Below are positions 19,640 to 31,336 of a DNA stretch of 64,000 nucleotides, in pieces. Source of the stretch: an uncultured archaeon (GTDB lineage: Archaea > Asgardarchaeota > Thorarchaeia > Thorarchaeales > Thorarchaeaceae). A program made the translations under genes and the position numbers. The notes under the pieces are model-generated. The model ran no database searches and was not told the DNA's origin. It was given only the letters and a program-made list of their open reading frames with translations. The number at the start of each line of letters is the position of its first letter. The stretch's first letter is position 1. Location of the stretch: positions 1 through 64,000 of the forward strand of contig CAYYQL010000011.1 in the NCBI GenBank assembly GCA_964473825.1, in the 5' to 3' direction.

Positions 19640-21085
19640 TTGGACATTAAGAAGATCGACAATAATCTCTACGAAATACCAAAGGGCACCAAGCCCTGTA
19701 TGAAAGTGCCTGTACGAATCTACGCATCAGATACTCTGATTGACAAGATGAAACAAGACAACACACTCAATCAGAGCATCAATGTTGCTTGTCTCCCCGG
19801 CATTCAACAGAAGAGCATCGTTCTTCCTGACGGGCATCAGGGTTATGGCTTTCCGATTGGCGGCGTGGCCGCGATAGATTACAATGAAGGAGTCATCTCG
19901 CCTGGGGGAGTAGGCTACGACATCAACTGTGGAGTGCGAGTGCTTAGGACCAATCTTAGAGAAGATGATGTTACCCCAAAGCTGCGAGAGCTGGTGGATA
20001 GGCTCTTCGACAAGATTCCAAGTGGCGTTGGTAGTACTAGCAAAGTCAATCTTCGCAGTGAAGGCGGAGTAGATGAGGTTCTCAATCTTGGAGCAAAATG
20101 GAACATAGAGAATGGGTATGGCTGGGAGGAAGACCTCAAGCACACCGAGGCGAACGGGAGTCTAGAGGTAGCAGATGCATCCAAGGTCTCAGCTCAAGCC
20201 AAGGGACGAGGCAACAGACAGGTAGGTACTCTTGGTTCTGGAAACCACTTCTTGGAAGTTCAGGCGGTAGATGAAATCTATGACGAAGAGAGCGCCAAAG
20301 CCTTTGGAATTGAGGAGACCGGTCAGATAACGGTGATGATTCACAGTGGATCTCGCGGCCTTGGCCACCAAGTCTGTAGCGACTACATCAAGACCATGAC
20401 TAGGGCGATGAAGAAGTATAACATAGATGTGCCCGACAGAGAGTTGTGCAGTGCACCGGTGACCTCTGACGAAGGACAGGCATATCTCGCGGCAATGAGC
20501 GCTGCAGCTAACTATGCGTGGGCTAACAGGCAGACTATGATGCACTGGACCAGAGAAACCTTCGGTAAAGTCTTTGGTCAGTCACCAGAGGATTTGGACA
20601 TGCAGCTGATATACGATGTTGCTCACAACATGGCGAAGGTTGAAGAGCACGAGATAGAGGGGAAGAAGAAGAAGGTGGTCGTCCATAGGAAGGGTGCCAC
20701 CCGAGCATTCCCGCCACATCACCCTGAAACACCAGAACTCTACAAGAAGATTGGACAACCAGTTCTGATTCCAGGCACGATGGGCACCGCTTCCTATATC
20801 CTCAGAGGCGATGCACGGGGAATGGATCTGACATTTGGTTCAACTGCTCACGGTGCTGGCCGAGTGATGAGTCGAACTCAGGCCAAACGTGACTTCTATG
20901 GCAAAGATGTACAAAAGAAACTTGCTAGTGAGGGAATCCTCGTGCGTGCACCTAGAGCCGTTGGTATTGCAGAAGAAGCGCCTGGAGCATACAAGGACGT
21001 TGACGAGGTCGTTCGTGTATCACATGAAGCAGGAATCGCAACATTGGTGGCAAGACTAAGACCCATGGGTGTCATGAAAGGCTAG
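19640..21085 (+). CDS. rtcB: RNA-splicing ligase RtcB
   Basis: PDGHQGYGFPIGG, GYDINCG, GSGNHFLE, HSGSRG, HRKGAT, HGAGR. Confidence 0.97.
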   Translation: MDIKKIDNNLYEIPKGTKPCMKVPVRIYASDTLIDKMKQDNTLNQSINVACLPGIQQKSIVLPDGHQGYGFPIGGVAAIDYNEGVISPGGVGYDINCGVRVLRTNLREDDVTPKLRELVDRLFDKIPSGVGSTSKVNLRSEGGVDEVLNLGAKWNIENGYGWEEDLKHTEANGSLEVADASKVSAQAKGRGNRQVGTLGSGNHFLEVQAVDEIYDEESAKAFGIEETGQITVMIHSGSRGLGHQVCSDYIKTMTRAMKKYNIDVPDRELCSAPVTSDEGQAYLAAMSAAANYAWANRQTMMHWTRETFGKVFGQSPEDLDMQLIYDVAHNMAKVEEHEIEGKKKKVVVHRKGATRAFPPHHPETPELYKKIGQPVLIPGTMGTASYILRGDARGMDLTFGSTAHGAGRVMSRTQAKRDFYGKDVQKKLASEGILVRAPRAVGIAEEAPGAYKDVDEVVRVSHEAGIATLVARLRPMGVMKG

Positions 21086-25890: not shown

Positions 25891-26445
25891 TGGGCTGGTA
25901 TGTCCCGATTATGAAGTAGTGTACCTTGAGAAGGATGCTTGTTTAGGAGCGGGGTTCGCCAGGCCGAAGCCTGAAGAGGCGAACCTTCCGCATCCGTCAG
26001 GTCATATAGACCAACCCAACTACAAGGCGCACGAAACAATATAGAATGCGCAAGTTTGCAAGGGAATCTTGCAAGGGGACCAATGCTGGAAACTCTTTTT
26101 TTGGGACCAATATTGCGAATGCGAGTTTCCGACGGGGAAATTCGAACGCCCTATATTTGAGCTCTCGAAGTGCGGAACTCGAAACGAATTCGGAACCGCA
26201 TCATTCGCAGCACAGCCATTGTATATGAATCTTGTTAGTTCTCAGGCTCTGTGTGAAAAGTCGACGAAAGGACAAGAATTAGAAACATTCACACTATACC
26301 GTGCACGAATCTCAAAGGCGTCATCGCTTTTTGTGACCGTAATAATCCATGGTTGATGAGTTTTCATACAGCGCCTAGTTCTCAGATACACGTAAGGCAC
26401 AACATCTCACCCATCCGAATTCTGATAGAACCAGACAAGAAACAT

Positions 26446-27702: not shown

Positions 27703-28356
27703 CTAAACAACATGACCGGATAGCTCACGGCGAATCTCTGAAAGAATCTTCGCTACTACCTGTTGCAGAGGCTTCGTTGCATCGACAACGCAGTAGTTTG
27801 CTTCGTCTTCACGACTCATCTCGAGGTAGGCCTGACGAACTTCGACTAACCGATCAAGATGTTCGAACTGCTTGTTTGTTTCACATCCCCGGCCACCTAT
27901 ACGGTAGAGGCCTTCTTCCGCAGGTATATCTAGAATGAATACGATATCGGGCTCGGGTGGAGATATTTCCACACGGTTTCTGTGTAAGATAGCTTGCCAA
28001 GGAATACCGGTACTGACGGACTGATATGCTCCAGTGGCAAAGTAATACCGGTCCAATATGATGATCTTGTTCTGTCGAAGTGCAGGACGAATTCGTTCCT
28101 TGATGTGCCACTGACGGTCCTTGATGAAGAGGTCAAGCTCCTCCTCTGGGGTCAGTTCTCCTTCAGGTGACCTCCTCCGTATCTCCTGCCCCCACTGACT
28201 CTCATCTGTCGGCTCTCGTAGACGTATATTCATGAAACCTTCTGAGGTCAGTTCTTCAGACAATCTATCTGCAACAACCGTCTTGCCGGCACCGTCGATG
28301 CCTTCTAAGACGAAGAGGAACCCTCTGTCCAGTTGCTTGTAGTCCTCATTATTCAA
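27703..28356 (-). CDS. tmk: Thymidylate kinase
   Basis: LEGIDGAGKT, REPT, ILDRY, AYQS, PDIVFILD. Confidence 0.95.
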   Translation of the reverse strand: MNNEDYKQLDRGFLFVLEGIDGAGKTVVADRLSEELTSEGFMNIRLREPTDESQWGQEIRRRSPEGELTPEEELDLFIKDRQWHIKERIRPALRQNKIIILDRYYFATGAYQSVSTGIPWQAILHRNRVEISPPEPDIVFILDIPAEEGLYRIGGRGCETNKQFEHLDRLVEVRQAYLEMSREDEANYCVVDATKPLQQVVAKILSEIRRELSGHVV

Positions 28357-28497
28357 TCAAAGTCACCGCAACAGCAAGAAACAAGGATGTCGCAAGCCTG
28401 AAGGTTTTAGGTTCTTCGGTGAGAAGATTCCAGCCGATAAAGAAACATCTCCAAAACGTATATCTTTGAAGCAATTACTATGTGCTCATAGGACTTG

Positions 28498-28705
28498 AAG
28501 GGGACGTAGTGTCTGAATGTCAATAAGGCGCCTTCTGGGGGAGAATCAATCTCCGTCGAATGGAAAGTCGTCTGGGTGGCTCTCTTCAAGAAGAAATTGC
28601 GAAACAAACTTGCCATCGCGTTCGTTCTTAACTTGGTCCCCTTGCAGAGTTATCCAATCCGGCGACCCATATTCCGAAAGGCGCCTAATCGATGACATTC
28701 GCCAC
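28498..28705 (+). ncRNA. Candidate rod-shaped structured RNA with possible pseudoknot
   Basis: Several nested helices with G-U pairs on the + strand; see findings. Confidence 0.4.
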
Positions 28706-28789
28706 GAAGACCAGATTTTTGGCAACGGTAATGCTTAAATTCAGTATGAAGAGGTTGTAGGTCAACCAATCCTACAACTGGTGAAAAAC

Positions 28790-30697: not shown

Positions 30698-31336
30698 TTG
30701 CACTGGAAAGACATCCTCATTGGACTCTCGGAGCCAGCAGACGGACGGGTGCCCCCCGTCTTTAAGCCGTACCATGCAGCTGTTGCGGTTATCATGATTG
30801 GCAGGCGCCAACCTCTTGGAAGATATGAGCTCTGTGAGAATATGTCAGTGGGTGAGGGCAGCGTGAGAACACTCCTGAAGAGGCTCTCAGAGAGCGGCCA
30901 TATCGCTCCAGAAGGGAGGCAGGGACAGAAACTGACAAACACCGGAAAGAATCTCTTCGAGAATATGATCCATGATATTCCTTTCGGACTCTTTCTTGAT
31001 GTAGGAAAGTTGACCGTATTCGAGTATTCCTTCGCCAACGTTGCAAGGGACAAGGCGGAATCAGTAACCGACGGAATAAGGCAGAGAGATGAGGCGATCA
31101 TCCAAGGCGGAGCAGAAAGCGCAGGTGCAACAACACTCATCATGAAAGATGGGCTCCTCGTCATGCCACCTGATGATTTCAATACTCTCGGAGCGTATCC
31201 CGAGGAAACCCTTCTCATAACTGAGAGCCTGAAACCGCAAGAGAACGATGCAATAGTGATAGGATCCGCAGACAATAGAAATCTTGCAAGGGAGGTCTCA
31301 ATGGCTGCGGTCATGACTCTGTTTGAAGTTGATTGA
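30698..31336 (+). CDS. DUF4443-like winged-helix protein
   Basis: PLGRYEL...VGEGSVRTLLKRL, GIRQRDEAI, GATT. Confidence 0.8.
   Translation: MHWKDILIGLSEPADGRVPPVFKPYHAAVAVIMIGRRQPLGRYELCENMSVGEGSVRTLLKRLSESGHIAPEGRQGQKLTNTGKNLFENMIHDIPFGLFLDVGKLTVFEYSFANVARDKAESVTDGIRQRDEAIIQGGAESAGATTLIMKDGLLVMPPDDFNTLGAYPEETLLITESLKPQENDAIVIGSADNRNLAREVSMAAVMTLFEVD

Follow-up and report, generated by a model that had tools for sequence, protein, structure and literature searches.

The window, i.e. the whole 64,000-nt stretch analysed here (positions 1–64,000 of contig CAYYQL010000011.1, working label C11, in the thorarchaeal assembly GCA_964473825.1), belongs to a 3.27-Mb genome that is 96% complete, hereafter G000; other G numbers designate its relatives and g1–g16 the genera of the family. 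The subject of this text is a non-coding RNA (ncRNA) gene, element A, located in the 424-nt gap between the thymidylate kinase gene (tmk; 27703–28356, minus strand) and a plus-strand operon which encodes, in this order, a DUF4430 protein, a 254-aa protein of unknown function, an ECF S-component-like protein, a PH0730/DUF4443 helix-turn-helix (HTH) protein and an ERCC4 nuclease. The DUF4430 gene starts 76 nt downstream of element A on the same strand, and the putative label ‘corrinoid uptake’ for the operon derives solely from the DUF4430 domain and the ECF likeness. The parts of element A, including those of a predicted bulge-helix-bulge (BHB) splice motif, are the following.

28451–28465, plus strand: promoter resembling a B recognition element and TATA box (BRE/TATA-like), a pattern match; A-rich at 28451–28458, TATA-like at 28459–28465
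28487–28705, plus strand: putative precursor ncRNA (element A) of ~220 nt, with both ends inferred
28498–28505, plus strand: G-rich 5′ leader, complementary to 28636–28643; located in the 5′ exon and not included in the predicted circle
28515–28559, plus strand: 5′ strand of the outer stem, which is variable and bears a side hairpin (28540–28554); pairs with 28674–28700, putative processing scaffold
28560–28566, plus strand: 5′ half of the BHB motif; helix strand 28560–28563, bulge 28564–28566, predicted cut 28565/28566
28566–28672, plus strand: predicted excised and circularised core, 107 nt (107–140 nt in homologues), from BHB geometry and the step in conservation
28617–28629, plus strand: conserved GUUC-repeat segment seen in alignments; most homologues have two to three units, and in three the repeat is degenerate
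28635–28651, plus strand: nearly invariant 17-nt motif, the first 12 nt of which are common to RNA B (below)
28667–28673, plus strand: 3′ half of the BHB motif; helix strand 28667–28670, bulge 28671–28673, predicted cut 28672/28673

The preliminary description of the region had proposed a rod-like, undescribed plus-strand RNA, and every arm named there is present, namely, 28515–28522/28693–28700, 28526–28538/28674–28686 and 28573–28583/28646–28656, together with the bulge at 28636–28643 and the leader at 28498–28505; the minimum free energy fold is the same rod (−74.3 kcal/mol). The shuffling test suggested at the time yields a modest signal on the plus strand (z −2.4, with 6 of 200 shuffles as good) and the same value, −2.4, on the minus strand, and does not give the strand. 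Comparative support for the structure, obtained from alignments, is much stronger: across 23 homologues, the three core helices pair in 97.9% of the cells and 10 of their 19 base pairs have changed on both sides, a level reached by none of 500 shuffles, with slid controls pairing at 32%–43%. The G-U pairs, which had been taken to favour the plus strand, indeed do so, far outnumbering A-C mismatches there among the homologues. The periphery of the rod is less constant, with the outermost helix broken in both congeners of G000, and the caag/cttg and aagaa/ttctt helices restricted to its genus, the family consensus at this position being a helix of the UGCGA/UUGCAG type. A TATA-like box is found 32–43 nt upstream of the G-rich leader in most homologues, from five genera, suggesting that transcription of element A would start near 28485–28488. 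Given the covariation, the G-U bias, the TATA-like box of its own and the occurrence as a single-copy gene, it is virtually certain that element A is a real ncRNA gene.

Homologues were collected, by means of the flanking proteins, as tmk–DUF4430 gaps across the family, and these gaps fall into two classes, long ones containing the element and short ones (mostly ~200 nt) devoid of it. In a survey panel of 86 family genomes (16 genera) and 64 other members of the phylum, the covariance model of element A (R1; 28487–28695 in G000, E 3e-32) matched once per genome in 27 of the 86 family genomes, representing six genera (g1, g3, g7, g8, g9 and g15); there were no matches in 55 genomes of the ten other genera or in the 64 other phylum members, and a core-only model likewise detected no copy in 123 non-family genomes. 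The pattern of the 17-nt motif occurs once per genome in 26 genomes with element A, and relatives with the same motif are labelled Ca. Thorarchaeota. Two weak matches of the model, in G098 (E 0.002, lacking the core motif) and G005 (within an 891-aa ORF), were taken as chance, as were non-Thorarchaeal matches of the pattern, those inspected being without the fold. In a FastTree phylogeny of four proteins, the carriers are interleaved with the non-carriers g2, g5, g6 and g12, which suggests a single origin of element A followed by several losses; the deep nodes are weakly supported. The copy in g8 is preceded by a remnant of an insertion sequence transposase (L072:1604–1819) and is probably decaying, because the leader and the 5′ BHB strand have been lost.

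The preliminary description did not include a BHB motif, and its conservation alters how the rod, as well as the leader complement, is to be understood. The motif was defined, following earlier work (PMC4731332; bioRxiv 10.64898/2026.10.13.758758), as a 4-bp helix between 3-nt bulges on opposite strands, in intron orientation and with at least one flanking helix, and was read on a structure-blind MAFFT alignment of the 23 homologues with a register shift of 1 nt allowed. In element A, the 4-bp helix 28560–28563/28667–28670 leads on the 5′ strand, via a 3-nt bulge free of gaps, into the inner stem, and on the 3′ strand 3 nt separate it from the continuing outer stem; this is the orientation of an intron. 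All 23 homologues display the motif at the same alignment columns (76–82/232–238), 17 of them in class hBHBh′, five, including G000, in class HBh′ and one in class hBH. The helix columns are 96.7% paired, with compensatory changes, such that the sequences vary and the geometry is constant; likewise, the 5′ bulge is 3 nt long in all 23 homologues and variable in sequence, and a spacing of exactly 3 nt gives the best continuation of the outer helix in g1, g3, g9 and g15. When ~34,000 pairs of alignment columns were scanned, this site ranked first, with 17 full-class motifs compared to at most 12 at other sites on the plus strand of element A, at most eight on its minus strand and at most three in RNA B. 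By comparative analysis, element A is an independent single-copy gene with a covarying plus-strand structure and a conserved BHB motif.

Identity between genera is 0.67 inside the predicted cuts and falls to 0.39 (5′ exon) and 0.29 outside of them, suggesting that the intron is the conserved product. Indirect support for cleavage of element A by the splicing endonuclease EndA comes from the homologue in G004, in which a 32-nt insertion in the core loop (L086:1425–1456) is itself an intron of class HBh′, with four of four central pairs on the plus strand and three of four on the minus strand. With cuts placed behind the second base of each bulge, the sequence of the congener G097 is recovered exactly, and such a nested intron would make sense only if the plus strand were transcribed and then processed by EndA. 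Two EndA paralogues (PF01974) are encoded in all five genomes searched, and the window carries a gene for an RNA ligase:

19640–21085, plus strand: RtcB RNA ligase gene (PF01139, E 1e-181), candidate ligase

Hence, both an EndA and an RNA ligase, as in hosts of BHB substrates that yield circular RNA, are encoded; the closeness of the ligase gene to element A may be due to chance. From the biochemistry of archaeal BHB splicing (PMC7714728; PMC4731332), the expected products would be a 107-nt circle (28566–28672) and a hairpin of ~113 nt composed of the ligated flanks. The ligated exons fold as a variable hairpin that is 29%–39% identical between genera.

The complement between the leader and the bulge, originally put forward as a potential pseudoknot, is present over 8 nt in G000 and over 5–10 bp in all 23 homologues, surpassing shuffled leaders (p<0.05) in 16 of them; G016 retains a G-U pair, and in G023 the register is shifted. 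Two-sided covariation is absent because the partner loop is nearly invariant. With the leader in the 5′ exon, the partner in the circle and a long rod separating both in the precursor, a cis pseudoknot appears no more plausible than pairing of one splice product with the other, or of different molecules. In G000, the cis pseudoknot would require a 9-nt linker to span more than 40 bp of the rod, according to the estimated geometry; a comparison of linker length with rod length, intended to probe the cis pairing, gave unstable constrained folds.

These observations can be assembled into a model in which a precursor of ~220 nt would be transcribed from the TATA-like box at 28459 and its variable outer stem would set up the BHB motif, allowing EndA to cut at 28565/28566 and 28672/28673. 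RtcB or another ligase would then circularise the conserved core of 107 nt, giving a stable ring, and connect the flanks to form a hairpin whose G-rich 5′ end remains free. Finally, the free 5′ end could base-pair with the circle at its pyrimidine-rich loop, which should be easier between two separate products than across ~40 bp of the rod in the precursor, so that it would probably mask the loop. Judging from the comparative evidence, element A is likely to be a stand-alone ncRNA gene, with a product generated by the tRNA-splicing machinery through the steps from transcription and BHB formation to the EndA cuts and the circle.

A second structured RNA is encoded ~2.4 kb from element A:

25946–26241, minus strand: element B, structured ncRNA of ~250 nt with a promoter-like box at 26241–26222, between an NPRL2-like gene and a longin-Arf gene

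The covariance model of element B (R2) matches in 79 of the 86 family genomes, covering all 16 genera, and in none of the 64 other phylum members; no Rfam match was obtained. Element B shows a covarying stem, rich in G-U pairs when read on the minus strand, an invariant CCCGU, an AACUC/GAGUU stem, two loops of the GGUCC type, CUUGCGCA and a 3′ ACGGAUGC, which could pair back as a pseudoknot. The scan of column pairs revealed no conserved BHB motif in element B, although its 3′ hairpin in g6 resembles the HBh′ motif (L261:290–325 and L273:148–183), a geometry not preserved in g1. A role as a U3-like chaperone of pre-rRNA was considered, because CCCCGUC of element B complements the 16S trailer in two genomes, and rejected, the trailer segment pairing in cis with the 16S leader and missing in several genera. 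The 12-mer GGTCCCCTTGCA occurs only twice in G000, in element A and at 26081 (minus strand) inside element B, and the word shared in the same sense extends to 14 nt (26083–26070 in element B). The exact 12-mer is present in element B of g1, g5, g12 and g16, the common word measures 9–10 nt in g3 and g9, and every aligned copy of element B has GGUCC in an unpaired loop. Common words of 9–14 nt are above chance in g1, g3 and g9 (p 0.0003–0.04), and the two RNAs are likely to share either ancestry or a binding motif.

Considering that the circle would expose an invariant pyrimidine-rich motif, which is also exposed by the universal element B, and would be transcribed together with a strand capable of masking it, we tentatively guess that the circle might be an accessory, long-lived decoy or modulator of a ribonucleoprotein of element B, acting through the GGUCCC-containing motif with the leader as an on/off mask. 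The full two-RNA system, in which the universal RNA B would be linear and element A would provide an accessory, EndA-made circle bearing the same invariant motif and switched by the circle's own ligated flanks, is rather unlikely; a bipartite RNA from one precursor would thereby regulate an Asgard ribonucleoprotein at a locus of NPRL2-like and longin-Arf GTPase genes.

Several observations weigh against the splicing and two-RNA interpretations. The outer BHB helix is weak in g7 and starts with a mismatch in G000; the lenient BHB class is also found on the minus strand in 22 of the 23 homologues (only seven of them full), with the consequence that only the full class discriminates between the strands; and the homologues, being related, are not independent. 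There is no long word common to the two RNAs above chance in g7, and the covariance models of elements A and B do not cross-match. Neither a partner protein nor an rRNA or mRNA target could be identified for element A: nothing convincing emerged for its loop among mRNAs and untranslated regions (UTRs) of G000, and neither RNA has a conserved rRNA target, element A showing no duplex of at least 10 bp with the 16S/23S loci that is common to three genomes.

The processing model has to be weighed against other readings of the same locus. Were element A a linear, stand-alone ncRNA, 6S-like or a protein-binding rod, with a true cis pseudoknot and a BHB-like geometry that is structural and uncut, the rod fold, the conserved leader complement and the weak outer helix of g7 would be readily accommodated. 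However, a bulge fixed at 3 nt while its sequence varies, the step in conservation at the predicted cuts, the short linker of G000 and the nested intron of G004, which points to the action of EndA, all speak against this reading, and we regard the uncut rod as distinctly unlikely. Even less probable is that element A acts in trans as an antisense partner of element B, in a pairing of the U4/U6 kind: its leader does complement the GGUCCC loops of element B, and in G065 there is a 14-bp match between the two, but element B is encoded on the minus strand, as indicated by the promoter position and the G-U bias, and the long common words are accordingly same-sense. Moreover, the cognate duplex of the central segment of element A reaches p≤0.05 against random windows in only four of 25 genomes, all of g7, and in g3 cognate duplexes are weaker than non-cognate pairs.

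The preliminary description had also considered a new leader RNA of the corrinoid-type operon, an interpretation that the comparison across genera contradicts, since the operon has its own control region:

28734–28774, plus strand: the operon's own promoter (TATA-like, 28734–28740) and palindromic operator (28758–28774), not part of the RNA

A riboswitch or other cis-acting leader, whether or not its 5′ UTR contained a regulatory intron as in Haloferax HVO_1309, would agree with the position of element A, on the same strand 76 nt before a gene for a DUF4430 protein followed by an ECF S-component-like gene, and with the lack of a clear terminator in between (by a bacterial-type scan only). Yet the TATA-like box and the operator are kept with or without element A, and 55 genomes of ten genera retain the operon without it. 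Conversely, in G010 a 2.2-kb gene for a 736-aa PAS kinase separates element A from the operator, with the promoter and operator travelling with the operon, whereas in G008, G023 and G065 element A is retained and the DUF4430 and ECF genes are gone from the locus, the DUF4443 gene following directly after the operator. An operon intact without element A and an element separable from the operon argue that element A is not its leader; nor is there the fixed cis position in the 5′ UTR of a regulated operon that characterises cobalamin riboswitches, or any match to RF00174 in five genomes, the signature of covariance-model match and B12 box being absent from element A, leaving this alternative very improbable. 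Least credible of all is a minus-strand gene for a small protein or an element acting as DNA, such as an origin box or a miniature inverted-repeat transposable element (MITE). The 50-aa minus-strand ORF pointed out initially does exist in G000, and there are Met-initiated open stretches in g3. The peptide is not conserved, the frame being interrupted by a stop codon in the congener G001 and by stops or frameshifts in g7, g9 and g15, and G002 having no Met upstream of the anchor in the segment examined. The inverted G-strings of element A may resemble origin boxes, a likeness dropped for want of Rfam support; the element is single-copy at a fixed locus, and both the G-U-preserving substitutions and the EndA intron require an RNA. 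The reading as a protein gene or DNA element is, thus, largely refuted.

Some observations concern the surroundings of element A. The operator (TAGGATA...TATCCTA type; 28758–28774) has at least three further copies in G000 (C2:135044, C3:85800 and C36:206), which are a candidate regulon of the DUF4443/PH0730-like HTH protein (30698–31336); the DUF4443 gene directly adjoins the operator in G008, G023 and G065, and the palindrome is reminiscent of DtxR boxes. The tmk–DUF4430 gap accepts foreign genes, such as the PAS histidine kinase downstream of element A in G010 (L288:426–2636) and a long unknown ORF upstream of it in G008 (L073:78–1283). On the tmk side, a strongly conserved motif at 28405–28419 (minus strand; TATTAGATGCTTCGG on the plus strand), found in nearly all genera, is probably the tmk promoter. 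Directly after the SRP (signal recognition particle) RNA gene on C2 of G000 lies a tRNA gene with multiple interruptions (L099:1900–2052), missed by ARAGORN without intron search, which called only 19 tRNAs genome-wide; the 16S genes of G010 and G002 (L142 and L143) contain several ~30-nt introns and one of 700–800 nt with an ORF-like insert, and the 16S gene of G021 has small introns differing from those of G010 and G002.

As regards known RNA families, element A has no Rfam match at E≤10, in agreement with the initial impression that it is not a cobalamin riboswitch, SRP RNA or RNase P RNA, and the scans of elements A and B and of the window returned a tRNA and chance matches only; SRP RNA and RNase P RNA are both encoded elsewhere in G000, above the cut-offs. 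It shares with RF00174 the position before the DUF4430/ECF operon and differs in the lack of a match and in not being bound to the operon. The likeness to 6S RNA noted at first holds for the ~200-nt rod of the precursor, and a rod of this length with paired ends and a pyrimidine-rich internal loop resembles bacterial 6S and Y RNAs alike; it does not extend to an Rfam match or a symmetric, promoter-like central bubble, the central loop of the precursor being strongly asymmetric (~15–20 nt versus 3–5 nt). A Y RNA was rejected because a TROVE/Ro60 protein is encoded in none of five genomes (three with element A), as was a template RNA of a retron or DRT, reverse transcriptase PF00078 being found in none of five. 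An intron of a tRNA or rRNA is contradicted by the ligated exons, which are neither, and no tRNA was called at element A; a tRNA-like reading, with leader and bulge as acceptor stem, fails on position 8 and the arms, which are not conserved. A C/D or H/ACA guide was discarded for lack of a conserved C or D box in the alignment and of a conserved complement in rRNA, the target covered by the guide search. A K-turn in the inner helix is broken in G001 and G008, and likenesses to U6/U4, group II domain V, the hepatitis delta virus (HDV) ribozyme and ydaO were dropped, being without Rfam support.

In our literature search, no description of either RNA was found; element B, a second family-wide, uncatalogued RNA, merits a study of its own. 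The predicted processing route of element A, by contrast with its body, which belongs to no known family, has precedents. Apart from precursors of tRNA and rRNA, the known archaeal BHB substrates are a few mRNAs and the permuted SRP RNA of Thermoproteus (PMC7714728; PMC4731332). In Thermoproteus tenax and T. uzoniensis, the leader and trailer of the latter form a BHB motif, from which EndA and a ligase produce a circular RNA (Plagens et al., 2015; PMC4731332). Element A is similarly a stand-alone gene with flanks forming a BHB motif, its circle being predicted rather than seen, and the (αβ)2-type EndA of the Thermoproteus host has a counterpart in the two EndA paralogues found here. Unlike the Thermoproteus RNA, element A has a core without an SRP match in a genome with a normal SRP RNA elsewhere, is dispensable (present in six of 16 genera) and has, in its 5′ exon, a conserved sequence complementary to the circle. 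Functional tRNA introns, exemplified by the C/D guide in the tRNA-Trp intron, and circular pre-16S/23S rRNAs are also known (PMC7714728; PMC12558985), as are circular BHB products in Haloferax (PMC7714728). With the tRNA-Trp intron, element A shares a conserved part inside the BHB motif and a predicted circle close in size to the 103-nt intron of Haloferax, whereas its exons are poorly conserved, are neither tRNA nor rRNA, and conserved C/D boxes are lacking. The BHB intron in the 5′ UTR of Haloferax HVO_1309 (PMC7714728) is comparable as an EndA substrate other than tRNA or rRNA upstream of a protein gene; in element A, however, conservation resides in the intron, and the operon that follows is separable and has its own promoter. 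The nested intron of G004 indicates that BHB introns land in ncRNAs other than tRNA, and bears on the arrival of introns in Asgard archaea (bioRxiv 10.64898/2026.10.13.758758). The phylogenetic range of element A is narrow. Its exact predicted junctions are checkable in any sediment metatranscriptome, and a gene dedicated to a conserved circle of no known family would give the tRNA-splicing machinery a broader role in the archaeal relatives of eukaryotes.
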